Positions 2,001 to 15,394 of a stretch of DNA of 63,519 bases are shown in pieces. Under the pieces are notes generated by a model. It saw only the letters and a program-made list of their open reading frames with translations. It searched no databases and was not told the origin of the DNA. A program made the position numbers and the translations under genes. The stretch is from contig JAZQAZ010000009.1 in assembly GCA_045545475.1 (NCBI GenBank), forward strand, positions 1 through 63,519, in the 5' to 3' direction. How positions within the stretch are numbered: position 1 is the stretch's first letter; every line of letters starts with the position of its first letter. This DNA is from Clostridia bacterium (GTDB taxonomy: Bacteria; Bacillota; Clostridia; CAKSNL01; HGM11501).

Positions 2001-2076
2001 TGGTGCGCCATCAGGGACTCGAACCCGCGACACCCTGATTAAGAGTCAGGTGCTCTACCAACTGAGCTAATGGCGC
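2001..2076 (-). tRNA. tRNA-Lys (anticodon CTT), encoded CCA
   Basis: Cloverleaf GCGCCAT/ATGGCGC; D arm GCTC/GAGC; anticodon arm CCTGA-CTCTTAA-TCAGG; TTCGA loop; 76 nt. TTGACA at 2125-2120 upstream. Confidence 0.95.
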
Positions 2077-2828: not shown

Positions 2829-3929
2829 ATGAAAAAAATGAAAAAAATTATAGGGTTATTATTGGCTTTTGCACTGCTTACCTCGTGTATTATAAGTGCC
2901 GGGGCAGCAAACATCGGTGATGTTATCAACAAAACAGTATACACCGATATTGTTGCAAAAATAAACGGTTACGACATTGCATCCTACAACATCGACGGTT
3001 ATACGGTTGTAGTTGCAGAGGATTTGCGTAATTACGGTTTTAACGTAGAGTGGAAGGGAGAAGAAAGAGCACTTTACATAACCGTAAATCCTTCTCAGTC
3101 AACAGTTACAAGCACTTATGTAGCACCTAAGGTTTCGGCAGATATGGTGGGTGTTAAAGCAAACGATGTTCTTTACACCGACATAAAAACATATATGGAT
3201 GGAAATCTTGTTACAAGCTATAATATTGGCGGCCTTACAGTTATATCCTTTAACGATTTACAGCGTTACGGAACAGTAAATTATGACAATGACGCCAGAG
3301 AGCTTTCCGTTGCATTACCTTGGGTAACAGGTGCTGACGGAACAGCCCCCCAGGCTCCCGACGGAACAAACGGCCCTCCTCCTCAGTCTTCTGATGGAAC
3401 AAGCGGTCCTCCCCCTCAGTCTTCTGACGGAACAAGCGGCCCTCCTCCTCAGTCTCCTGACGGAAGTGCTCCTCAGGCCCCTCAGACAACAACACCTTAT
3501 TCTACATTGGCAAATGAAATTAAAACAAACGGTGAGTTTGTAGAAGATTCCGATGGCAATTATTACTTTTTATACGGAGAATATACACTTGATGCAGGAG
3601 ATGTATCGTTATATGCTGTTTATACCGAGGGCAAGCACATAAGTTTTCTTTTCTCCGTTGAAAGCGATGTGACAATTGACATCATGATTATGATTAAAGA
3701 GGGTGGCGAGCTTAGCGGAGCTCTTTTTGAAGCTTCTCAGGGATCTTACGAGTTAGGCGTTGTATACACATACAATAATAACGGAGAATTGGTTCTTAAG
3801 CAATCAGACTATGCCGAGTTAAATGAAACGGCTGAAGAAATGATTACAGCGTCGTATGAAGTTTTTGATGAATTTTTAGCATCCATGGGTGCAAGCATCA
3901 AGCTTAAGAATTTTGGAATAAAGTATTGA
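2829..3929 (+). CDS. Secreted protein: duplicated N-terminal module, Pro/Ser-rich repeat linker, unknown C-terminal domain
   Basis: Signal peptide; two YTDI...NG..I.SYNI.G.TV-like repeats; DGTSGPPPQSS repeats. Confidence 0.75.
   Translation: MKKMKKIIGLLLAFALLTSCIISAGAANIGDVINKTVYTDIVAKINGYDIASYNIDGYTVVVAEDLRNYGFNVEWKGEERALYITVNPSQSTVTSTYVAPKVSADMVGVKANDVLYTDIKTYMDGNLVTSYNIGGLTVISFNDLQRYGTVNYDNDARELSVALPWVTGADGTAPQAPDGTNGPPPQSSDGTSGPPPQSSDGTSGPPPQSPDGSAPQAPQTTTPYSTLANEIKTNGEFVEDSDGNYYFLYGEYTLDAGDVSLYAVYTEGKHISFLFSVESDVTIDIMIMIKEGGELSGALFEASQGSYELGVVYTYNNNGELVLKQSDYAELNETAEEMITASYEVFDEFLASMGASIKLKNFGIKY
3360..3458 (+). repeat. Intragenic 33-bp tandem repeat x3
   Basis: GACGGAACAA(A/G)CGGCCCTCCTCCTCAGTCT(T/C)CT-like units at 3360, 3393 and 3426. 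Confidence 0.9.
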
Positions 3930-3930
3930 T

Positions 3931-3963
3931 AAAAAGCGTGTAGGTTTTGCCTACACGCTTTTT
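3931..3963. terminator. Bidirectional terminator
   Basis: AAAAAGCGTGTAGG/CCTACACGCTTTTT between convergent genes. Confidence 0.8.
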
Positions 3964-4837
3964 ATTGTATCTTATATTTTATCTTTTTGTACTCGTTAGG
4001 AGAGCAACCTTTGAAGCGTTTGAAAACCCTGTTGAAATAGGAAACGGAAGAAAATCCCACATCAAGAGAAATGTCGGAAACACTCATGGAGCTTGAGGTT
4101 AAAAGCTTTTCTGACTTACAAACCCTTACGAAATTGAGATACTCCGTAAAAGTGGAATTGGTTGCCTTTTTGAAAAGTCTGCAGAAATAATAGGTGTTTA
4201 AGTTAAGATGCTCACTTATCTGTTCTAAGGTTAACTGTTCAGCGTAGTTGGAGTCGATATAGGAAAGAGCAGGAAGCACCTTGTCCACATATTTGAAATT
4301 GAAATATGTGTCGGCATTAAGAAGAATGTTGTTTCTGTATAAAAAGCCCAAAATGCTGTGAATTCCGGATTTTATGAAGCTTTCGTATCCATTGTTCTTT
4401 TCGTAGCTTTCAATGAATATGAGGCGCATATAGTTGGAAAGAGCCTCGTTTTCCGGAGTATTTGCCTTGAACACCATAGAAGGAATTTCTCCCATATTTA
4501 TGAATCGGTACAAATACTTACTTATGTTTTCCTTTGTTTCAATAAAACTGATGGTGGAAAACTGAAGCATTGAGGAAAATGTGCCGTTTGCAAGAGTCCT
4601 GGTGGCGTGGGGAACACGACTGGCCAGGTAAATGATATCGCCCTTTTCTGCAATTAATTCTTCCGTACCTGCGAGGCAGTGAAACTTTCCCGATTCAATA
4701 TACAAAAGCTCAATTTCGTCATGGATGTGAAGCGAGCAGATGTGATGAGGCTCGAGTTTTTCGTTTTGCGGATGTGGAGAATATGAAATTTTAATAGGGA
4801 CGTTATCTATGCTTGAACGTATAAGCTCCTGATTCAT
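3962..4837 (-). CDS. AraC family transcriptional regulator
   Basis: Cupin H.H..IEL; C-terminal VGFSSVSYFNRVFKRFKGCSP; start placed after GAGGAGG. Confidence 0.92.
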   Translation of the reverse strand: MNQELIRSSIDNVPIKISYSPHPQNEKLEPHHICSLHIHDEIELLYIESGKFHCLAGTEELIAEKGDIIYLASRVPHATRTLANGTFSSMLQFSTISFIETKENISKYLYRFINMGEIPSMVFKANTPENEALSNYMRLIFIESYEKNNGYESFIKSGIHSILGFLYRNNILLNADTYFNFKYVDKVLPALSYIDSNYAEQLTLEQISEHLNLNTYYFCRLFKKATNSTFTEYLNFVRVCKSEKLLTSSSMSVSDISLDVGFSSVSYFNRVFKRFKGCSPNEYKKIKYKIQ

Positions 4838-4931
4838 AGAATTCCTCCTCATGTCAAAATTGTGCAATCAGTATATCATAGCTTTCACTAAAAAGCAAGA
4901 AAAAAGAGCAAGATTTTCTTGCTCTTTTTTC

Positions 4932-6104
4932 TTATTTAATGTGTTTGTCTGCAAAACGCTTCATTCGCTCAAGTGCCTTGTTTATGTTGCTGATGGAATA
5001 AGCATAGGAGCAACGGATAAAGCCTTCTCCCGAATCTCCGAAGGCGGAGCCTGATACAACTGCTACACGCTCTTCGTGAAGAAGTGCTTCGCAGAAATCA
5101 TCACTCTTAAATCCTGCCTTTGAAATGTTTGGGAATACATAGAAGGCACCTAAGGGTTCGAAACACTCAAAGCCCATTTCACGGAAGCCTGTAACCATAA
5201 GCCTGCGTCTCATGTTATATTCGTTTCTCATAGCTGCGACATCGCCGTCACAGTTGCGAAGTGCTTCGATTGCCGCATACTGGCTTGTGGTGGGGGATGA
5301 CATAATTGCATACTGATGTACCTTAAGCATCATTTTCATGATTTCCTTGGGAGCACATACATAACCAAGTCTCCAGCCTGTCATGGCAAAAGCCTTTGAA
5401 AAGCCGTTTATATAAATTGTACGTTCCCTCATACCGGGATATGCGGCAATGGATGTGTGCCCTTCGGGAGTATAGTTAAGTTCGGAATAAATTTCGTCGG
5501 TTAAAACAAGAATGTTTGTGTCACGGAGAAAAGCAGCAAGAGCTTCCAGATCCTCCTTTTCCAAAATGGCACCGGTGGGATTGTTGGGATAGGGGAGAAT
5601 TAGTGCCTTGGTTTTGTCAGTAACTGCAGCCTTTAAGTCCTCAACTGTCAAACGGAAGTTATTTTCTTCCTTTGTTACAATCGGAACTGGAGTTCCGCCT
5701 GCAAACATGGTTAAAGGCTTATAGCATACAAAGCTGGGCTCGGGAATTAATACCTCATCCCCGGGGGCGATGATGGTACGGAGAGCAACATCAATTGCTT
5801 CGCTTCCGCCAACGGTAACTAAAACCTCGTCCTCTGTATAGGAAAGCTCATACTTTCTGTCAAGATAACGGCAAATTTCCTTTCTGAGTTCAAGTAATCC
5901 TGCGTTTGCGGTGTAGTGGGTGTGTCCCACTTCAAGTGAACGTATACCCATATCTCGGATGGAACGGGGAGTGTTGAAGTCTGGCTCGCCAACACCGAGG
6001 GAAATTACATCCTTCATTTCGTTTACAACATTAAATAGCTTTCTTATGCCCGACGGCGGAATGGACATAACCGTAGGCGAAAGCAGTTTATCATAATCAA
6101 GCAT
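4932..6104 (-). CDS. PLP-dependent aminotransferase class I/II
   Basis: GEPDF, PNNPTG, DEIY, GFSKAFAMTGWRLG. Confidence 0.93.
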   Translation of the reverse strand: MLDYDKLLSPTVMSIPPSGIRKLFNVVNEMKDVISLGVGEPDFNTPRSIRDMGIRSLEVGHTHYTANAGLLELRKEICRYLDRKYELSYTEDEVLVTVGGSEAIDVALRTIIAPGDEVLIPEPSFVCYKPLTMFAGGTPVPIVTKEENNFRLTVEDLKAAVTDKTKALILPYPNNPTGAILEKEDLEALAAFLRDTNILVLTDEIYSELNYTPEGHTSIAAYPGMRERTIYINGFSKAFAMTGWRLGYVCAPKEIMKMMLKVHQYAIMSSPTTSQYAAIEALRNCDGDVAAMRNEYNMRRRLMVTGFREMGFECFEPLGAFYVFPNISKAGFKSDDFCEALLHEERVAVVSGSAFGDSGEGFIRCSYAYSISNINKALERMKRFADKHIK

Positions 6105-6114
6105 AGGGCACCTC

Positions 6115-6591
6115 TTATATCATCATTTCTCGGTCATCTGTCTTTACGTTTTCAAAGATGATGCCTTCGCGCTTATAGGTTTTAAGCATAAAGTGTGTGG
6201 ATGTGGAAATAACTGAATCCATCTGCGCAAGATGTTCGGAAACGAACATTGCAACGTCCTTTATGTTTTTGCCTTCAACAAAAACAGCAAGGTCGTATGC
6301 ACCGCTCATAAGATAGAGGTGGCGTACCTGCTCATAGCAATAAATGCGGGAAGCAATAGCGTCAAAGCCTTCGCCTGCGGAAGGAGTAACCTTAAGCTCA
6401 ATAAGAGCGGTTACGGTGTCTGCGGCAACCTTATCTTCGTTTACGATGGGCTTATATCCTAAAATGATTTTTTCTTCTTCCATTTTAGCAATGGCACTTT
6501 GAACCTCTGCTAAATCCATACCGGTCATTACGGCAATCTTTTCGGGAGTAATTCTGGCATCACTCTGAAGAATATCAAGAATTCTTTTCAT
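6115..6591 (-). CDS. Lrp/AsnC family regulator
   Basis: ILDILQSDAR HTH; SGAYD; directly upstream of the aminotransferase (alaR-alaT-like pair). Confidence 0.9.
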   Translation of the reverse strand: MKRILDILQSDARITPEKIAVMTGMDLAEVQSAIAKMEEEKIILGYKPIVNEDKVAADTVTALIELKVTPSAGEGFDAIASRIYCYEQVRHLYLMSGAYDLAVFVEGKNIKDVAMFVSEHLAQMDSVISTSTHFMLKTYKREGIIFENVKTDDREMMI

Positions 6592-6802
6592 ACTAATCTT
6601 CCTTTCGGTAAAAATAACTTACCATACATTATATACTATATATAAGAAAAAAACAAGGCTTTTTTAATAAATAGCAAAAAATATTTCGGAAAAAACAAGA
6701 AAACAGCATTTCTCCGAAAATATTTCTGCAAAAGGCGATAAAAAGCGAAAAAATTCTGAAATATAAAAGGAACACGGAATTTTTTCCGTGTTCCTGATTT
6801 TT

Positions 6803-7822
6803 TTATTCTAAGTCGCCGTAGCCTTCGGGGTTATTTGACTGCCAACGCCATGTGTCGCGGCACATATCTTCTAAAGTCTTTTCAGCTTTCCAACCCAAAA
6901 CTTCAAGAGCTTTCTTGGGATCTGCAAAGCATTCTGCAACGTCGCCGGGTCTTCTGTCTGTTATAACGTAGGGAACCTTTACGTTGTTAACTTTTTCGAA
7001 TGCATTTACGATATCAAGCACGCTGTAGCCTGTGCCTGTACCAAGGTTAACTGTTTCAACACCCTTGTGGTCCTTTGCGTAGGTGATTGCCGCAACGTGA
7101 CCCTTTGCAAGGTCAACCACGTGGATGTAATCACGAACACCGGTACCGTCGTGGGTGGGGTAGTCGTTTCCGAATACGCTTAAACGCTCTCTCTTACCAA
7201 CTGCGGTCTGTGAAATATAGGGCATTAAGTTGTTGGGGATGCCGGAAGGATCTTCGCCGATAGTTCCGCTTTCGTGGGCACCGATTGGGTTGAAATAACG
7301 AAGGAGAACAACTGATAAGTTTTTATCTGCAACAGAGGCATCGCGGAGTATCTGCTCGATGAAGAGCTTTGTCCATCCGTAGGGATTTGTGCAGCTTGTG
7401 GGCATATCCTCTGTCAGCGGAACAGTTTCCGGAATACCGTAAACTGTTGCAGAGGAAGAGAATGCAAGGTTGCATACACCAAATTCCTTCATTACATCAA
7501 GAAGTGTAAGTGTGGAATTTATGTTGTTTCTGTAATACATTATGGGCTTTTGTACGGATTCGCCGACTGCCTTGTAGCCTGCAAAGTGTATTACCGCATC
7601 AAGCTTGTTTTCCTGGAAAACTACCTTCAAAGCATCATAATCTGCCACGTCGCACTTGTAGAAGGGGATGCTCTGTCCTACGATTTTTTCAACCCTTCTT
7701 ACGCTTTCCATTTTACTGTTGGATAAATCGTCTGCAATAACAACTGTATGACCTTTTTTGATAAGTTCAACTGCGGTATGGCTTCCTATGTAGCCGGCAC
7801 CGCCGGTTAAAAGTATATTCAT
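6803..7822 (-). CDS. galE: UDP-glucose 4-epimerase
   Basis: GGAGYIGSH, KAVGES, SSSATVYG, YGWTK, LRYFNP, RDYIHV. Confidence 0.97.
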   Translation of the reverse strand: MNILLTGGAGYIGSHTAVELIKKGHTVVIADDLSNSKMESVRRVEKIVGQSIPFYKCDVADYDALKVVFQENKLDAVIHFAGYKAVGESVQKPIMYYRNNINSTLTLLDVMKEFGVCNLAFSSSATVYGIPETVPLTEDMPTSCTNPYGWTKLFIEQILRDASVADKNLSVVLLRYFNPIGAHESGTIGEDPSGIPNNLMPYISQTAVGKRERLSVFGNDYPTHDGTGVRDYIHVVDLAKGHVAAITYAKDHKGVETVNLGTGTGYSVLDIVNAFEKVNNVKVPYVITDRRPGDVAECFADPKKALEVLGWKAEKTLEDMCRDTWRWQSNNPEGYGDLE

Positions 7823-7836
7823 TTTTACGCCTCCAA

Positions 7837-9051
7837 TTATTTTACGATAAGCTTATAGAAGTTTTTCTTACCCTTTTTAACAATGATTTCACCGTCTGTA
7901 AAGTCGGCTTCTGTAAGTTCGGCAGCAATGTCTGTTACCTTAGCATCGCCGATTGTAAGACCGTTCTGCTGAATAAGACGACGGCATTCGCTCTTTGAAG
8001 GAGCGATACCTGCCTTAACCATTACGTCCATAACGTTTCCGAGGTCGCTCTTTTCAATTTCAACGGTGGGCATATTTCCTGATGCACCGCCTGAGAATAC
8101 CGCACGGGCTGCTTCCTGAACGTTCTTTGCGGTTTCTTCACCGTGAACAAGTGCTGTAACCTCGTATGCGAGACGCTCCTTAACGGGGTTAAGCTGACTT
8201 CCTTCAAGCTTTTCAAACTCTCTGATTTCGTCCATGGGAACGAAGGTAAGAAGCTTCATGCACTTGATAACATCGGCATCGTCAACATTTCTCCAGTACT
8301 GATAGAAATCGTAAGGAGTGGTTTTTTCAGCGGAAAGCCAAACTGCACCGGATGCGGTTTTACCCATTTTCTTACCTTCGGAGTTGGTAAGAAGAGTAAA
8401 GGTCATACCGTAAACCTGCTTCTGATCCTTCTTTCTGCAAAGGTCAAGACCGCCTAAGATGTTACTCCACTGATCGTCACCACCAAGCTCCAACTTACAG
8501 TCGTACTTACGGTTAAGCATCAAGAAGTCATAGCTCTGCATAAGCATATAGTTAAATTCGAGGAAGGATAAGCCTTTTTCGAGTCTCTGCTTGAAGCATT
8601 CTGCCTGAAGCATCTGATTAACGGAGAAGCAGGCACCGATGTCACGGATAAACTCAATATAGTTTAAGTCAAGTAACCAGTCGGCGTTATTTACCATTAA
8701 AGCCTTGCCGTCGGAAAAATCAATTATTCTTGAAAGCTGTTCTTTGAAGCATTCGCAGTTGTGGTCGATTACTTCCTTTGTCATCATCTGACGCATGTCG
8801 GTTCTTCCGGAAGGGTCACCGATGTGGCCTGTACCGCCACCAACAAGTGCGATGGGAGTGTGACCTGCATTCTGCATATGACGCATTACAACCATCTGAA
8901 GGAAGTGTCCTACGTGAAGGCTGTCAGCCGTGGGGTCAAAGCCGATGTAGAATTTTATCTTTTCCTTGCCCAGCATCTCACGGATTTCTGCCTCGTGAGT
9001 GGTCTGAGCAATAAGTCCTCTCTCTTTTAAAATATCAAAAACGTTTTCCAT
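7837..9051 (-). CDS. tyrS: Tyrosine--tRNA ligase
   Basis: [25 protein letters not shown]-terminal S4 domain. Confidence 0.97.
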
Positions 9052-9201
9052 TTATATTCATCCTTTCGGGATTATAATTTCTGAAATTATATTATATCAC
9101 GTTTTTTTTCTTATTGCAAGTATAATTTATACGGAATAAAGCTTGTGATACGTCAAGATTTTAATAAAAAAACGGATGAGGCTAAAGCCGCATCCGTTTT
9201 T

Positions 9202-9474
9202 TTACTGTACTGTTTCGGTATCTTCCATGGTGCCGTCTATTGTGTCATCTGGCATTTCGGCAGGTGTATCATCGGTGCCGTTTGTCATATCGTCTGCAAA
9301 ATCCTTTGTATCATCAATCATATCGTCTGCCATATCTTCGGTTTCGTCAATTATATCATTGGCACCGTTTTCGATGTCATCGCTCACCCCGGGACTGTTT
9401 CCGTCGGGCATACCGCAGGCTGCGATGATAAACAGAAGGGATACTGTCAGTAAAATAGAAATAAGTTTTTTCAA
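9202..9474 (-). CDS. Small acidic lipoprotein with Asp-rich low-complexity repeats
   Basis: TTG start after AAGGAGG; lipobox IAAC; own terminator at ~9166-9202. Confidence 0.7.
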   Translation of the reverse strand: MKKLISILLTVSLLFIIAACGMPDGNSPGVSDDIENGANDIIDETEDMADDMIDDTKDFADDMTNGTDDTPAEMPDDTIDGTMEDTETVQ

Positions 9475-9601
9475 AATAAAAACCTCCTTTCTTTCCATAG
9501 TATATTGTAGAAATATTTTTTTATTCATATTTGTTGACGAAAGGTAGAAAAATTGTTATAATAAAAAAATGTAAAAAGCAATGTATGGGAGATTTTTAAA
9601 A

Positions 9602-10666
9602 ATGTTTGAAAAATTGGCTTTTATTGAAGAACGCTATGAAGAGCTTACGAAAAGTATAAGTGATGTTTCCGTAATGGAGGATAGATCAGAGTGGAGCAAG
9701 CTTTGCAAGGAGCATGCCGACATGACTCCTATTGTGGAAAAATACAGAGAGTATAAAAAATACAAAGAATCCATTGAAGAAGCAAAGATGATTTTGGAAG
9801 ACTCTTCGGCAAAGGAACTGCATGAGCTTGCAAAGATGGAGCTTGATGAATGCCTTGATGCGGCATCGCTTTGTGAGGAAGAACTTAAAATATTGATGCT
9901 CCCGAAAGATCCCAATGACGATAAAAATGTAATTATGGAAATAAGAGGCGGAGCAGGCGGCGATGAAGCGGCACTTTTTGCGGCAAACCTTTTCAGAATG
10001 TATTCCATGTTTGCAGAATCCAGAAGATGGAAAATTGACGTAATGAATACCAACGAAACAGGACTTGGCGGAATAAAAGAAATTTCTTTTATGATAATAG
10101 GTCAGGGGGCATATAGTACTCTTAAGTACGAAAGCGGAGTTCACAGAGTGCAGAGAGTTCCGGACACCGAATCCCAGGGAAGAATCCACACTTCAACCGT
10201 AACCGTCGCGGTGCTTCCCGAGGTTGAAGAGGTGGAGGTTGAAATAAACCCCAATGATTTAAGAATTGACGTTTTCCGTGCGGGCGGCCCCGGCGGTCAG
10301 TGCGTTAATACGACAGACAGTGCGGTTCGTATCACTCACATCCCCACAGGACTTGTGGTAAGCTGTCAGGACGAAAAGAGCCAGCATAAAAACAAGGATA
10401 AGGGTATGAAAATTCTCCGTTCCCGTCTTTATGAGCTTATGCAGTCCCAGCAGCACGAAAAGGTGGCATCCGAGCGTAAGAGTCAGGTCGGAACAGGTGA
10501 CAGAAGTGAGAGAATAAGAACCTATAACTTCCCCCAGGGAAGAGTGTCGGACCACAGAATCGGTCTTACCCTTCACAAAATTGATGCCATTATGAACGGC
10601 GATTTAGACGAACTTATTTCAGCACTTACCCTTCACTATCAAAGCGAAAAATTAAAAGAGCAATAA
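9602..10666 (+). CDS. prfA: Peptide chain release factor 1
   Basis: [17 protein letters not shown] (PxT), [13 protein letters not shown]. Confidence 0.97.
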
Positions 10667-10680
10667 AATAAAAATAGGTA

Positions 10681-10709
10681 TTGACTTTTTCACTTTAGTG
10701 TGCTAAAAT
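10681..10709 (+). promoter_or_regulatory. Sigma-A promoter of the T-box leader
   Basis: TTGACT-17 bp-TAAAAT with extended TG. Confidence 0.7.
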
Positions 10710-10734
10710 GCCTGTAAGCATAAATGGGTATGCT

Positions 10735-11017
10735 AAAGGCTGTGAACGGAAGCAAGTAGGTTTTCCTTAGGAGTCAAGAGAAGCGGCGGTTGGTGCAAGC
10801 CGTAATCTGAAGGTTTACTGAATACGGTCCGGGAGCTTCGGGGAAGAAGTAAGTAAGCCCCGACGGGTTTCGCCCGTCAAAGCGAGTGAGTAGCACGGAA
10901 GTACGGTTTTTTTGTTTTACTCAATGAGGCAGGTTGCCGTGAGGTGCCTGTAAACTGAGGTGGTATCGCGGATTATTATGTCCGTCCTCTGGTTATTTTC
11001 CGGGGGACGGATTTTTT
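10735..11017 (+). promoter_or_regulatory. T-box riboswitch, probable Tyr specifier (UAC)
   Basis: Stem I with GA motif, AGTA/GAA S-turn, AGAGA box and GGTG distal loop; TAC at 10823-10825; T-box AACTGAGGTGGTATCGCG at 10953-10970; terminator at 10981-11017. Confidence 0.9.
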
Positions 11018-11069
11018 ATTGCCGGCTGTCCTCTGGAAGAAAAAAATGTATTATGGAAGGATGGTTAAA

Positions 11070-12623
11070 ATGGCAGTAAAAATTATTATGTTGGTGGTAT
11101 TCTTCGCGGTTATGATAGGTGTCGGAGTATACTGCAGAAAAAGTGCGACAAATGTATCAGGCTTCGTTTTGGGCGGAAGAAATGTAGGTCCCTGGCTTAC
11201 GGCTTTTGCTTACGGTACATCTTATTTCTCAGCGGTTATTTTCGTAGGCTATGCAGGTCAGTTCGGTTGGAAGTTCGGTGTAGCTTCAACCTGGATTGGT
11301 CTCGGTAATGCCTTTATCGGTTCTCTTCTTGCATGGATTATCCTGGGAAGAAGAACACGTCTTCAGACTCAGCATCTCGGAACGGCCACAATGCCTGAAT
11401 ATTTCGGTAAGCGTTTTGAGAGCAACTCTTTGAAAATAGTTGCTTCGGCAATTGTTTTCATATTCTTAATTCCTTATACAGCATCACTTTACAACGGTCT
11501 TTCAAGACTCTTTGAAATGGCATTCCCCGGTGTATCCTACAACGTATGCGTTATTATAATGGCGGTACTTACGGGTATCTACGTTATCGCAGGCGGATAT
11601 ATGGCAACAGCAATCAACGACTTTATCCAGGGCATCATAATGATCGGCGGAATCATAGCGGTTATCGGTGCCGTACTGGGCAGCCACGGCGGATTCGTTG
11701 CATCGCTTACAGAGCTTGCCGAGGTTGAATGCGTAAATGTCAATGGTGACGTACTTCCCGGCGGATTTGCTTCATTCTTCGGCCCCGATCCCTTCGGACT
11801 TTTATGTGTTGTAATTTTAACTTCCCTTGGTACCTGGGGTCTTCCTCAGATGGTTCAGAAGTTTTATGCGATAAAGAGCGAAAACAATATTTCCAAGGGT
11901 ACAATAATTTCCACAATATTTGCAATTATCGTTGCAGGCGGATGCTACTTCTTGGGCGGCTTCGGAAGAATTTCCGGTATCGAAGCAGAAGCAGGAACAC
12001 CTGTTGGCGGATTTGATGCCGTTGTTCCCAAAATGCTTGAAAATCTTCCCGACATTTTAATCGGTGTTGTAATCGTTTTGGTTCTTTCAGCATCCATGTC
12101 AACTCTTTCAAGCCTTGTTTTAACATCAAGCTCGACCCTTACTCTTGATATGATAAAGGGACACATCGTTAAGAATATGTCTGAGAAAAAGCAGGTATTC
12201 ATTATGCGAATCTTCATCGTTGTGTTTATCGCAGTATCTGCATTCATTGCAATCAATAAGGATAAGCTTGGCTACATAGCAGATATGATGGGTATTTCCT
12301 GGGGTGCACTGGCAGGTGCGTTCCTTGCTCCCTTCTTATACGGCTTATACGGCAAGTGGGTTACAAAAGCATCTGTATGGGCAAGCTTTGCATTCGGCTC
12401 TCTTTTAATGATAGCAAATATGCTCTTCAGAGGAAGCTTCCCTGCTGTTTTACAGTCTCCCATCAACTGCGGTGCGGTTGCAATGATCGGCGGACTTATC
12501 ATAGTTCCAATTGTCAGCCTTTTAACTCCCAAAATGAAGAAGGAAAAGGTTGATCCTATGTTCACCTGCTACGACAGAAAGGTGCTTGTTAAGGCAACAG
12601 ATGCCCTTGGCGAAGAAGAATAA
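11070..12623 (+). CDS. Sodium:solute symporter (SSS) family transporter
   Basis: About 13 TM segments; FVLGGR, YVIAGG, SASMSTLSS motifs. Confidence 0.92.
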   Translation: MAVKIIMLVVFFAVMIGVGVYCRKSATNVSGFVLGGRNVGPWLTAFAYGTSYFSAVIFVGYAGQFGWKFGVASTWIGLGNAFIGSLLAWIILGRRTRLQTQHLGTATMPEYFGKRFESNSLKIVASAIVFIFLIPYTASLYNGLSRLFEMAFPGVSYNVCVIIMAVLTGIYVIAGGYMATAINDFIQGIIMIGGIIAVIGAVLGSHGGFVASLTELAEVECVNVNGDVLPGGFASFFGPDPFGLLCVVILTSLGTWGLPQMVQKFYAIKSENNISKGTIISTIFAIIVAGGCYFLGGFGRISGIEAEAGTPVGGFDAVVPKMLENLPDILIGVVIVLVLSASMSTLSSLVLTSSSTLTLDMIKGHIVKNMSEKKQVFIMRIFIVVFIAVSAFIAINKDKLGYIADMMGISWGALAGAFLAPFLYGLYGKWVTKASVWASFAFGSLLMIANMLFRGSFPAVLQSPINCGAVAMIGGLIIVPIVSLLTPKMKKEKVDPMFTCYDRKVLVKATDALGEEE

Positions 12624-12722
12624 AATTAAAGCATACGGCCTTGCCGTATGCATACCAATCGGGAACGGCCTTCCCGATTGGTATGCATTAGCAAATTACC
12701 CTTTTGAAAGGAAGGTAAAAAT

Positions 12723-14357
12723 ATGCCTATTACAGATTTTCTTGAAAAAAATGCGAGACTTCATCCGAATGAAATTGCCCTGGTTGAAGTAAATCCCGCA
12801 AATCAGCCGGATAAAAACTTATCCTGGCACGAATATAGCCTTATCGAGGCCACGGCAGGGGAGAAATACCGCCGTGAAATAACCTGGAAGGAGTTTGACG
12901 TTGCGGCAAACCGCTTTGCAAACCTTCTTCTTACAAGAGGTGTTAAAAAGGGAGACAAGGTTGCAATTTTAATGATGAACTGCATCGACTGGCTTCCCAT
13001 CTATTTCGGAATACTGAAATCCGGTGCCATTGCGGTTCCCATGAACTTCCGTTTCTCTGCAGAGGAAATTGAGTATTGCTCGGATTTGGCAGACGTTTCT
13101 GTTCTGGTTTTCGGTCCCGAATTTACGGAGAGACTTAATTTGGTTCTTCCGAAACTTGAAATTAAGCACTATTTCTTTGTAGGTGACGATAAGCCTGATT
13201 TTGCGGACAGCTATGAAGATATGATTGGCTACTGCTCATCCGGCGCTCCTGCCATTGAAATTGATGATGAGGACGACGGTGCAATTTACTTCTCCTCAGG
13301 TACAACAGGCTTCCCCAAAGCTATTTTGCACAGACATAAGGCTCTTGTTACATCCTGTCAGGTGGAACAGAAGCATCACTCCCAGGGAAGAGAGGACGTG
13401 TTCTTATGCATTCCTCCTCTTTACCATACAGGTGCAAAGATGCACTGGTTCGGTTCGCTTTTATCCGGAAGCAAGGCTGTTATCTTAAAGGGTATCAAGC
13501 CTGAGTGGATTCTCCAGACGGTATCTGACGAAAAGGCAACAATTGTATGGCTTCTTGTTCCGTGGGCACAGGATATATTGGATGCAATTGAGCGTGGCGA
13601 GATTAATCTTTCCGATTATAACCTTTCTCAGTGGAGACTTATGCACATCGGAGCACAGCCCGTTCCGCCTTCACTTATAAAGAGATGGAAGGAAGTATTC
13701 CCGAATCACGAGTATGACACAAACTACGGTCTTTCCGAGTCCATCGGTCCCGGTGCCGTTCACCTTGGAGTTGAAAATATACATAAGGTTGGTGCAATCG
13801 GTGTTCCCGGATACAAGTGGGAAGTTAAGATTATCACAGATGAAGGCAACGAAGCGAAGCAGGGTGAGGTTGGCGAACTTTGCTTGAAGGGCGACGGCGT
13901 AATGAAGTGCTATTACAAGAATCCTGAGGCTACAAGAGAAGTCTTGACACCTGACGGATGGCTCTATACAGGAGATATGGCAAAGCAGGACGAAGACGGC
14001 TTTATCTATCTTGTTGACCGTAAGAAGGATGTTATCATAACAGGCGGTGAAAATATTTATCCCGTGCAGATTGAGGACTTCCTTCGTGCAAATGATAAGG
14101 TAAGCGACGTGGGCGTAATCGGTCTTCCTGATGAGAGACTTGGCGAAATTACGGCAGCAATTATTCAGCTTAAGGAAGGTGTAACAGCGACAGTGGAGGA
14201 AATGGATGAATACTGCACTGCTCTTCCCAGATACAAGAGACCTAAGAAAATTATATTTGCCGAAATTCCCAGAAATGCAACAGGTAAAATTCAGAAAAAT
14301 GCTCTTCGTGAGCGTTACGGGGCATCCCGTCTTGTTGAGGCAGAAACAACAAAATAA
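12723..14357 (+). CDS. AMP-dependent acyl/aryl-CoA synthetase
   Basis: FSSGTTGFPK, YGLSE, TGD, DRKKD, GGENIYP, TGKIQK. Confidence 0.92.
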   Translation: MPITDFLEKNARLHPNEIALVEVNPANQPDKNLSWHEYSLIEATAGEKYRREITWKEFDVAANRFANLLLTRGVKKGDKVAILMMNCIDWLPIYFGILKSGAIAVPMNFRFSAEEIEYCSDLADVSVLVFGPEFTERLNLVLPKLEIKHYFFVGDDKPDFADSYEDMIGYCSSGAPAIEIDDEDDGAIYFSSGTTGFPKAILHRHKALVTSCQVEQKHHSQGREDVFLCIPPLYHTGAKMHWFGSLLSGSKAVILKGIKPEWILQTVSDEKATIVWLLVPWAQDILDAIERGEINLSDYNLSQWRLMHIGAQPVPPSLIKRWKEVFPNHEYDTNYGLSESIGPGAVHLGVENIHKVGAIGVPGYKWEVKIITDEGNEAKQGEVGELCLKGDGVMKCYYKNPEATREVLTPDGWLYTGDMAKQDEDGFIYLVDRKKDVIITGGENIYPVQIEDFLRANDKVSDVGVIGLPDERLGEITAAIIQLKEGVTATVEEMDEYCTALPRYKRPKKIIFAEIPRNATGKIQKNALRERYGASRLVEAETTK

Positions 14358-14363
14358 GATTTA

Positions 14364-14391
14364 AGAGCCGCCAGATGGCGGCTCTGTTTTT
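14364..14391 (+). terminator. Intrinsic terminator
   Basis: AGAGCCGCC/GGCGGCTCT plus T tract. Confidence 0.7.
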
Positions 14392-14461
14392 GTGTTTCTT
14401 CTTGACAATTTTGCATATATTGGTATAATAAGGATATATTTGTTTTAAAGGGGAATATCAG

Positions 14462-15394
14462 ATGATTCATGACAACATACTTTCGGCATTGGGTAATACC
14501 CCGATGATACGTCTTAATAAAATGGGCAGGGAAAAAAGTGCCGAAATTTTAGTTAAATTTGAAGGTCTTAATGTGGGCGGGTCCATAAAAACAAGAACTG
14601 CATACAATATGATCCGTGTGGCAAGAGAAAAGGGAATAATAAACGAAAATACAGTAATTGTGGAGCCTACCAGCGGAAATCAGGGGATAGGTCTTGCTCT
14701 TGTGGGTGCGGTTATGGGATATAAGACAAAAATCATTATGCCCGATTCCGTTTCCGAGGAGAGAAGAAAATTAGTTCGTCATTACGGTGCAGAAGTAATT
14801 CTGATACATGATGACGGAAACATCGGCGAATGTATCGATAACTGCTTAAAGACTGCACTTAAAATGGCCTCTGAGGATAAAAACGTATATGTTCCTCAGC
14901 AGTTTGAAAACGAAGCAAATACCCAGGCACAGAGAAATTACACCGCAAGGGAAATTTTAGAAGAGGTGGGCCGTCCTATTCACGGCTTTTGCTCCGGAAT
15001 CGGCACAGGCGGAACAATAACCGGTATCGGAGAAGTGTTAAAAGAAGAAAACCCCGATATTGAAATATGGGCGGTTGAGCCTGAAAACGCTGCAATCCTG
15101 GCCGGCGGAAATATCGGCACTCACCTTCAGATGGGAATAGGTGACGGAATAATTCCTGCCATATTAAACAACAAAATCTATTCCGATATATGCATAATTT
15201 CAGATGAAGAGGCAATTAAAACAGCCAAAGACCTGGCAAGAATGGAAGGAATTATGTGCGGAATATCCGGTGGTACCAACGTGGCTGCGGCAATAAAGCT
15301 TGCCCAAAAGCTAGGTGAAGGAAAAACCGTTGTAACGGTGCTTCCCGATACAGCAGAACGCTATTTTTCAACACCTCTTTTTGAAAATGAATAA
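14462..15394 (+). CDS. Cysteine synthase family PLP enzyme (divergent CysK-like)
   Basis: GNTPMI, GGSIKTR (PLP Lys), PTSGNQG, GTGGT, QMGIG, PDTAERY. Confidence 0.85.
   Translation: MIHDNILSALGNTPMIRLNKMGREKSAEILVKFEGLNVGGSIKTRTAYNMIRVAREKGIINENTVIVEPTSGNQGIGLALVGAVMGYKTKIIMPDSVSEERRKLVRHYGAEVILIHDDGNIGECIDNCLKTALKMASEDKNVYVPQQFENEANTQAQRNYTAREILEEVGRPIHGFCSGIGTGGTITGIGEVLKEENPDIEIWAVEPENAAILAGGNIGTHLQMGIGDGIIPAILNNKIYSDICIISDEEAIKTAKDLARMEGIMCGISGGTNVAAAIKLAQKLGEGKTVVTVLPDTAERYFSTPLFENE

Follow-up and report, generated by a model that had tools for sequence, protein, structure and literature searches.

The closest described relative of the element considered here is the T-box leader of the Bacillus subtilis tyrS gene, which we take to carry a UAC specifier codon, a UGGU bulge for a tRNA with discriminator base A73, and overlapping terminator and antiterminator structures. 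The present analysis deals with a T-box leader on a contig of a Clostridia bacterium (GenBank assembly GCA_045545475.1, contig JAZQAZ010000009.1, positions 1 to 63,519; this whole stretch of 63,519 nucleotides is called the window below). It belongs to the same RF00230 family as the B. subtilis and other Firmicutes tyrS leaders and shares their mechanism, but it controls an SSS-family transporter and a carboxylate-CoA ligase, designated LIG, and the tyrS gene of its own genome has no T-box. The leader and the two genes probably constitute a T-box-controlled operon for the salvage of an aryl acid to tyrosine.

Since the 1960s rumen and gut anaerobes have been known to use phenylacetate, hydroxyphenylacetate, indoleacetate, and branched short acids as precursors of phenylalanine, tyrosine, tryptophan, and the branched-chain amino acids, and the aryl-acid route to aromatic amino acids was reportedly described by Allison in rumen work of that decade. 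The chemistry proposed for our locus is the same as in Methanococcus maripaludis and Bacteroides, namely activation by an AMP-forming ligase, carboxylation by IorAB, the subunits of indolepyruvate:ferredoxin oxidoreductase (IOR), and transamination, and both IorAB and a PaaK-like ligase are encoded in the operon of relatives; our locus differs in having a second ligase, which is of FadD13/4CL and not of PaaK type, an SSS carrier devoted to the route, and a T-box specific for one amino acid as its control. In M. maripaludis aryl acids feed IOR as a second route, as stated in a passage of PMC4162585 that cites Porat et al. In Bacteroides the AMP-forming enzyme linked to IOR was shown to be an arylacetate-CoA ligase, and its AMP-forming nature was taken as an argument for the thioester-forming direction in the corresponding passages of PMC13285125.

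The second point of comparison is the T-box-controlled transporters. Wels et al. 2008 (PMC2494555), in its passages on transporters, describes Tyr T-boxes before NhaC-family transporters of the BA4353 type and uses the specifier to assign the substrate; the seven T-box-controlled transporter families named there are ABC, APC, DAACS, LIVCS, MFS, NhaC, and NSS, and SSS is not among them. In both cases a Tyr T-box switches on a transporter, which in the window is an SSS protein that, unlike the NhaC case, has a ligase as its partner and IorAB as well in relatives, pointing to an acid precursor and not to the amino acid. The leader as such is an ordinary member of RF00230, and the pathway chemistry is already known. 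New, as far as found, are the T-box control of a carboxylate ligase together with an SSS carrier (joined in relatives by IorAB), the division of Tyr and Phe specificity between LIG and PaaK, and the parallel ligases for Ile, Val, and Leu. The literature search yielded no publication that connects T-boxes to IOR, PaaK, or aryl-acid ligases; outside its range lay the regulon tables in the supplements of PMC3766115 and PMC2494555, which may list such genes.

The main elements of the locus, in window positions, are the following.

10733 to 10992, forward strand: T-box leader from Stem I to the antiterminator, read here as tyrosine-specific (RF00230; aligned with 24 relatives)
10820 to 10826, forward strand: 3' side of the specifier loop, with GAA at 10820-10822, UAC at 10823-10825, and the purine G10826 (covariance alignment)
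10961 to 10964, forward strand: UGGU of the T-box bulge, partner of the ACCA end of an A73 tRNA (covariance alignment)
10980 to 11018, forward strand: intrinsic terminator-like hairpin (10980-11012) with T-run; 13 pairs, 8 of them G-C, tail TTTTTATTGC
11070 to 12623, forward strand: SSS-family symporter of 517 aa (PF00474), proposed importer of 4-hydroxyphenylacetate or, in a rival reading, of tyrosine
12723 to 14357, forward strand: ANL (class I adenylate-forming) acyl-CoA ligase LIG of 544 aa (PF00501 and PF13193), proposed 4-hydroxyphenylacetate-CoA ligase

An earlier note, made from the letters of the window, had described a complete T-box starting at 10735, followed by an SSS symporter and a 544-aa acyl-CoA synthetase, and a nearby tyrS without a T-box. 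The cmscan search over the whole window returned one T-box leader, which covers the full model (1-219) with 103.8 bits vs a gathering threshold of 93 (E 7.8e-22) and moves the start by two bases to 10733. The distal motifs of Stem I, AGAGA and GGUGNNA in the family, are represented by AGAGA at 10777 followed by GGUUGGUGCAAG, and this part is kept in 24 relatives. The segment 10980-10992 (GUCCGUCCUC) is common to the 3' strand of the antiterminator and, by pattern match, to the 5' arm of the terminator-like hairpin, which is followed by TTTTT, and the two structures are predicted to be mutually exclusive at this leader. Both proteins were identified as the note had named them: the symporter by PF00474 (203.3 bits vs 22.8, E 7.6e-60, residues 32-433) and the ligase by PF00501 (237.3 bits vs 29.9) and PF13193 (46.4 vs 24.5). 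The SSS gene likely starts at ATG 11070, which has GGAAGGA 8 nt upstream and agrees with the N-termini of orthologs, and not at the TTG 11019 of the open reading frame list. As to tyrS, no T-box was found upstream of it in 8900-9700 even at E<=1, and of the seven T-box matches in the own genome (2.74 Mb, 50 contigs, 95% complete) none lies near this gene, just as had been claimed.

The amino acid to which the leader answers was the critical point. The codon adjacent to GAA is UAC (Tyr), as read in the earlier note together with an A discriminator, but one base further on the window would read ACG and its relatives ACA or ACC, all of them Thr codons, and the operon would then answer to threonine. 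The Rfam alignment of the 8-nt loop strand fixes no register by itself and permits the threonine one. Moreover, UAC after GAA is insufficient alone, because the ileS leader of the own genome (GAAA-AUC-A) and its thrS leader (best read as GAAA-ACC-G) set the codon one base further; the Leu leader of this genome reads GAA-CUC-G, and its Ile-ligase leader has AUC-A directly ahead of the lower helix without GAA. In the threonine register, finally, the variable A, G, or C after UAC would be synonymous.

The decision came from the comparison of 27 leaders (the window, 25 of the 80 SSS loci described below, and locus L124), all of which stand before SSS or LIG orthologs. UAC and UGGU are present in all 27, and the base after UAC is A in 24, C in two, and G in one; in the window the strand continues after UAC with G, G. 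A conserved purine thus follows the tyrosine codon, since this base is A in 24 of the leaders, whereas with the codon read as threonine a U would stand behind it in 24 of 27. According to ARAGORN, the tRNA-Tyr(GTA) of the own genome has A73 and all three tRNA-Thr have U73, and the bulge of the own thrS leader is UGGA; as the UGGU bulge needs A73, the Tyr register is to be preferred over Thr. In addition, a genuine tyrS leader from a relative (L068) reads GAA-UAC-A-U on an identical specifier-loop strand, GAAUACAU, with the same geometry as the window leader, and the open reading frame behind it shares 61% identity over 84 aa with the TyrRS of the own genome. A Phe sister leader with the same 8-nt loop (L106 in genome G004, 101.2 bits) reads GAA-UUC-C-U ahead of a PaaK-like ligase gene, where the shifted register would give UCC (Ser) instead of UUC (Phe). 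On the discriminator base, the purine rule, the L068 tyrS leader, and the Phe/PaaK sister leader the threonine register was rejected as very improbable, and the leader is almost certainly a Tyr-specific T-box, in agreement with the earlier note.

The genes that accompany the carrier were then compared in the best 80 of 594 confirmed SSS relatives (one genome per species, 64-80% identity). Among the metagenome-assembled genomes (MAGs) concerned, many of which bear isolate names that indicate ruminant or other animal guts, the labels are Oscillospiraceae, Acutalibacteraceae, Lachnospiraceae, Ruminococcus, Selenomonadaceae, Treponema, Synergistaceae, and Kiritimatiellia. Searches with tblastn and with an nhmmer profile of the leaders gave the following counts.

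Tyr T-box directly before SSS (24) or before LIG-SSS (1): 25 of 80 loci
LIG ortholog: 29 of 80 loci
IorA: 15 of 80 loci
IorB: 12 of 80 loci
PaaK-like ligase: 12 of 80 loci
ACT-domain gene: 7 of 80 loci
PF04909 amidohydrolase: 19 of 80 loci

LIG lies within 300 nt of SSS on the same strand in 22 of the 29 loci, either before it (12) or behind it (10). In eight relatives SSS and LIG are directly followed by IorA, with IorB in seven of them, a PaaK-like ligase in three, and a Tyr T-box in seven. The complete order T-box, SSS, LIG, IorA, IorB occurs in L013, L016, L017, L021, L023, and L043, with PaaK in addition in L013 and L043; in L012 the contig ends inside IorA of the same arrangement, and L010 has SSS, LIG, IorA, IorB, and PaaK without a T-box. 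These neighbours are true IOR subunits (IorA 697.9 vs 650.9, IorB 297.9 vs 230). In L068 (positions 3275-11165, a Lachnospiraceae MAG) the order LIG, SSS, IorA, IorB, PaaK, ACT is found without a T-box, the Tyr T-box with tyrS mentioned above lying immediately downstream. The 55 loci without a T-box, four of which have less than 350 nt upstream of SSS and do not allow the T-box to be judged, keep LIG in 17, IorA in 8, and PaaK in 10 cases, and therefore the linkage is independent of the T-box.

The regulation of LIG also occurs apart from the carrier. Among the 13 genomes with a T-box-SSS locus and no adjoining LIG, ten have LIG elsewhere, and a separate LIG with its own leader, GAA-UAC-A and UGGU, was found in G010, G037, G038, and G041, the gene in G041 having an internal stop. 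LIG thus belongs to the Tyr regulon in its own right.

The mechanism that we propose on this basis starts with uncharged tRNA-Tyr(GUA), which would accumulate and pair by its anticodon with UAC 10823-10825 and by its ACCA end with UGGU 10961-10964. The antiterminator would then hold, the terminator 10980-11012 would not form, and the SSS-LIG operon would be transcribed. The SSS carrier would take up an arylacetate, most likely 4-hydroxyphenylacetate released by neighbouring tyrosine fermenters, which LIG would convert with ATP and CoA to 4-hydroxyphenylacetyl-CoA; IorAB with reduced ferredoxin would carboxylate this reductively to 4-hydroxyphenylpyruvate, and an aminotransferase would yield tyrosine. 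The response of the leader in vivo, the co-transcription of LIG in the own genome, and the direction of IOR are what we infer from these elements. The earlier note had likewise suggested that a shortage of tyrosine induces the import of 4-hydroxyphenylacetate or a similar acid and its conversion to the CoA ester, with carboxylation to the 2-oxo acid to follow, and the gene context (LIG in 29 of 80 loci, IorA in the operon, separate LIG T-boxes, and the Phe T-box before PaaK) speaks strongly for this proposal, the acid itself being deduced. That SSS and LIG both serve the supply of tyrosine is very probable, salvage of an arylacetate through IOR is likely, and for 4-hydroxyphenylacetate as the exact substrate the chances are somewhat better than even.

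Several observations weigh against this scheme, beginning with the carrier. In 13 of the 25 T-box loci no LIG adjoins SSS, and in three of the 13 genomes concerned (G007, G039, and G040) the LIG query found no LIG at all. These facts also fit the view that SSS is a sodium/tyrosine symporter, that LIG, together with IorAB or PaaK in relatives, merely shares the tyrosine-supply regulon, and that the acid gets into the cell by diffusion or through a different carrier. For such a symporter speak also the PF03547 permease next to LIG in G008 and the best NCBIfam model of SSS, PutP (TIGR02121), an amino-acid (proline) carrier, as well as the general rule that T-box transporters usually carry the cognate amino acid, as put in the transporter passages of Wels et al. 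2008 (PMC2494555). However, the PutP score of 200.4 bits is far under the cut-off of 515.5, and two other NCBIfam models are likewise under theirs (PanF 136.4 vs 328, ActP 36.5 vs 1099); the nearest solved structures are SGLT-type carriers, none being closer. Furthermore, SSS stays beside LIG, IorA, or PaaK at the loci without a T-box in Lachnospiraceae, Selenomonadaceae, and Treponema MAGs with the gene order shuffled, and such a persistent adjacency is typical of a transporter and a ligase with a common substrate. IorA is also present in all 13 genomes whose T-box-SSS lacks an adjoining LIG. We consider a tyrosine symporter unlikely and retain the import of an arylacetate. In G008 itself, whose T-box-SSS is located elsewhere, LIG (L122 162-1796, reverse strand) lies 19 nt downstream of the permease gene (L122 1815-2735, reverse strand; Mem_trans, auxin efflux carrier family).

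The ligase raises a second group of objections. The best NCBIfam model of LIG is a long-chain-fatty-acid--CoA ligase (NF004837, 409.8 bits, under the cut-off of 476), and the nearest solved chains are FadD13 (E 4e-76), FadD5, feruloyl-CoA synthetase 8wev (E 8.8e-59), and the 4-coumarate-CoA ligases 5bsw (E 4.3e-55); the closest named relatives hence use fatty acids, ferulate, and 4-coumarate, not arylacetates. By homology an aryl substrate is plausible, and an arylacetate is not implied. PaaK, the adenylate-forming arylacetate ligase (TIGR02155) encoded beside IorAB in relatives and behind a Phe T-box in G004, is absent from the best 25 of the 108 NCBIfam matches of LIG. The PaaK-like proteins have 435-442 aa and PF14535 (AMP-binding_C_2), in contrast to the 544 aa and PF13193 of LIG; the earlier note was right that the ligase is longer than PaaK, but the length merely reflects another ANL subfamily. 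Some operons contain both LIG and PaaK, a redundancy that our scheme leaves unexplained, and the Amidohydro_2 (PF04909) neighbour of 19 of the 80 loci has no place in it. These amidohydrolases have 263-310 aa (e.g., L017 6630-7421, L021 6595-7410, and L070 6565-7416) and in two loci lie between SSS and LIG inside the Tyr T-box operon, and their only solved relative is a weak match, the 5-carboxyvanillate decarboxylase LigW.

The same data suit the alternative that SSS and LIG handle a different 4-hydroxyphenyl acid, such as 4-coumarate, 3-(4-hydroxyphenyl)propionate, or 4-hydroxyphenyllactate, or else a broad range of arylacetates, and that the arylacetate step itself is left to PaaK. The feruloyl- and 4-coumarate-activating relatives, the presence of PaaK and LIG in one operon in L010, L013, and L043, and the hint at phenolic-acid chemistry given by the amidohydrolase would all be accounted for. 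Against it stands genome G004, where PaaK is under a Phe T-box and LIG under a Tyr T-box, which fits a split between phenylacetate and its 4-hydroxy acid. IOR interconverts arylpyruvates and arylacetyl-CoAs, and no route is known by which the neighbouring genes would convert phenylpropanoid-CoA esters to tyrosine. This alternative seems to us quite improbable in comparison with 4-hydroxyphenylacetate as substrate of LIG.

The third group of objections concerns the genome as a whole. The own IorAB (IorA 717.2 vs 650.9, IorB 291.3 vs 230, on contig C24) and the own PaaK-like gene (542 vs 646.3, under the cut-off, with an ACT gene on contig C8) are on other contigs, and none is behind a T-box; the search for iorAB proposed in the earlier note was nevertheless positive, and the absence of any 2-oxoacid oxidoreductase, which would have spoken against its idea, was not observed. 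In contrast, the expected lack of tyrA and shikimate genes was not borne out: prephenate dehydrogenase (PDH_N) and chorismate synthase are both present in the own genome and in five of five relatives, and nothing forces salvage. A loss of the de novo route in carriers of the operon was rejected on these two enzymes, and the salvage would accordingly stand beside this route instead of taking the place of a lost one. IorA was found in 42 of 44 genomes with SSS or LIG (15 of 16, 13 of 13, and 14 of 15; none in G028 and G048), a count that takes in IorA copies truncated at a contig end or broken into two parts; the co-occurrence is weak support, because 76 of the 101 genomes sampled from the class have IorA. 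In the order-level survey LIG was present in 8 of 8 genomes, a small and closely related sample that is uninformative. As to expression, 20 of 22 listed sequencing runs (seven studies, animal gut metagenomes) contain part of the window in the form of contigs, from which transcript ends, strand, or levels are not readable and in which gaps in RNA cover are uninformative. Contigs from two metatranscriptome libraries of one study span 10845-10995 and 10967-11286, and the second crosses the terminator into the SSS gene, a weak hint of expression, but they are shallow (depth about 3) and carry-over of DNA is possible.

The direction of the pathway could also be the opposite one, i.e., tyrosine fermentation with oxidative decarboxylation by IOR and with SSS exporting or exchanging the acid; IOR is oxidative in peptide fermenters and in phenylacetate production by Bacteroides, as described in parts of PMC13285125. 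This catabolic logic is opposed by T-box induction at scarcity of the amino acid, and AMP-forming ligases would waste the thioester energy, an argument also made in the same parts of PMC13285125. A phosphotransacylase/kinase pair or an ADP-forming synthetase was not found among the recurrent neighbours. Since the T-box induces on starvation and AMP-forming ligases favour thioester synthesis, the biosynthetic direction is preferred, and fermentation is a highly improbable reading.

Further support for salvage was obtained from parallel T-boxes in five relatives (G001-G005, 1.4-2.2 Mb), where 25 of 26 matches were read, locus L115 with a partial 39.4-bit match at a contig start being left out. 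They are distributed as follows.

Tyr, before SSS: 5
Val (GUA), before HTH-cupin-ligase fusions: 5
Ile (AUC), before HTH-cupin-ligase fusions: 4
Phe, before a PaaK-like ligase: 1
Leu, before a TIM-barrel-ligase fusion: 1
Leu, before LeuA-like genes: 2
Leu-like, before a small P-loop gene: 1
Trp, before trpB-like genes: 2
Phe (2), Ile (1), and one specifier not read, before aminoacyl-tRNA synthetase genes (pheS twice, ileS, and an AspRS-like gene): 4

The own genome (G000 in the coordinates below, given as genome, contig, and positions) has comparable systems. Its Ile T-box at G000:C41:96634-96864 (reverse strand, AUC-A, 96.2 bits) precedes a 751-aa protein (L089 5303-7558, reverse strand), a fusion of HTH_3, cupin_2, and an ANL ligase, to which the proteins of the Ile T-box group are 60-71% and those of the Val (GUA) group 50-53% identical. 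The ligase part has MbcS as its best NCBIfam match (456 bits, under the cut-off of 850). MbcS is the short branched-chain acyl-CoA synthetase of Staphylococcus aureus (PMC10026030 and PMC11167679), to which PMC10026030 ascribes a supporting part in the synthesis of branched-chain fatty acids. The likeness, activation of exogenous branched short acids, is to these parallel systems and not to LIG, and MbcS differs in feeding fatty-acid and not amino-acid synthesis and in having no fusion to HTH and cupin domains. The Ile and Val HTH-cupin-ligases may serve the salvage of 2-methylbutyrate and isobutyrate, respectively. VorB was also found (573.9 vs 399).

The own Leu T-box at G000:C47:65461-65705 (forward strand, GAA-CUC-G, 134.9 bits) heads six genes (L088 662-8873), which encode in this order a LeuA-like protein, an 825-aa fusion of a xylose-isomerase-like TIM barrel and an ANL ligase, a class I/II aminotransferase, an inorganic pyrophosphatase, a TetR protein, and a second SSS carrier with 29% identity to that of the window. 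The Phe T-box of L106 (G004:C61:35926-36176) precedes a gene for a PaaK-like ligase (L106 1842-3149; TIGR02155 526.7 bits vs 646.3), and just upstream on the same contig there is an Ile T-box with its HTH-cupin-ligase. These cases suggest a single T-box/ligase design repeated for five amino acids, and the Tyr case gains credibility from them. A separate observation concerns tryptophan: the own T-box at G000:C6:22487-22711 (reverse strand), in which UGG is combined with a UGGC bulge (tRNA-Trp having G73), stands before a trpB-like gene, as is also the case in G003 and G005, and may indicate indole salvage.

A wider interpretation, which we offer tentatively and to which we give slightly less than an even chance, is that the present lineage of gut and rumen Clostridia with small genomes has largely transferred its T-boxes from the genes of aminoacyl-tRNA synthetases to a regulon for the salvage of fermentation acids. 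A carboxylate-CoA ligase of its own, behind a cognate T-box, would serve each of the five amino acids Tyr, Phe, Ile, Val, and Leu, with a carrier for Tyr; the ligases would feed a ferredoxin-dependent reductive carboxylation by IOR or VOR, and the amino acids would be rebuilt from the waste acids of neighbours only on uncharged cognate tRNA. If this is true, the specifier codon would tell, throughout metagenomes, the substrate of ANL ligases and SSS carriers that resist assignment by other means, with LIG assigned to 4-hydroxyphenylacetate, PaaK to phenylacetate, and the two clades of HTH-cupin-ligases to 2-methylbutyrate and isobutyrate.

The genes for uptake and substrate-specific activation of aryl and branched short acids in bacteria still bear mostly generic annotations, and a T-box names the amino acid that a gene serves and the need for it at shortage of this amino acid. 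It gives here a testable substrate assignment for an SSS carrier widespread in gut MAGs of several phyla and for a ligase of the FadD13/4CL type, and from the Ile, Val, Leu, and Phe T-boxes the specificity of related ligases may be read in the same manner. Since p-cresol is formed from 4-hydroxyphenylacetate, consumers of this acid would compete in cross-feeding with p-cresol formers. The T-box also provides regulatory evidence for the biosynthetic direction of IOR in these bacteria, a direction which in the cited parts of PMC13285125 is still argued for Bacteroides.

The remaining features around the operon are given below.

7837 to 9051, reverse strand: tyrS (TIGR00234, 437 bits)
10681 to 10709, forward strand: sigma-70-type promoter-like site TTGACT-17-TAAAAT with TG extension, 10 of 12 matches, by consensus match alone
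12631 to 12690, forward strand: two nested perfect hairpins sharing ATGCATACC, in the 99-nt spacer between SSS and LIG, with no T-run after them on the forward strand
14364 to 14385, forward strand: terminator-like hairpin ending the SSS-LIG operon; 9 pairs, 7 of them G-C, tail GTTTTTGTGT

The promoter-like site sits 24 nt ahead of the start of the T-box model. No promoter-like or terminator-like site was found on the forward strand of the SSS-LIG spacer, and its hairpins may act in processing or stabilisation or may simply be a small repeat. Between tyrS and the divergent release-factor-like gene (9581-10666) lies a spacer of 530 nt (9052-9580), which contains short open reading frames alone and no Rfam match better than E 0.015. 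Downstream of the operon a 12-of-12 promoter-like site, TTGACA-16-TATAAT with TG, at 14402-14429 precedes an open reading frame of 310 aa (14462-15394), whose product, judged by eye, resembles a cysteine synthase. At the other end of the window a Gut-1 RNA (RF01706, 71.3 bits vs 50) was found at 1890-1965 on the reverse strand, 35 nt downstream of tRNA-Lys(CTT) (2001-2076, reverse strand).

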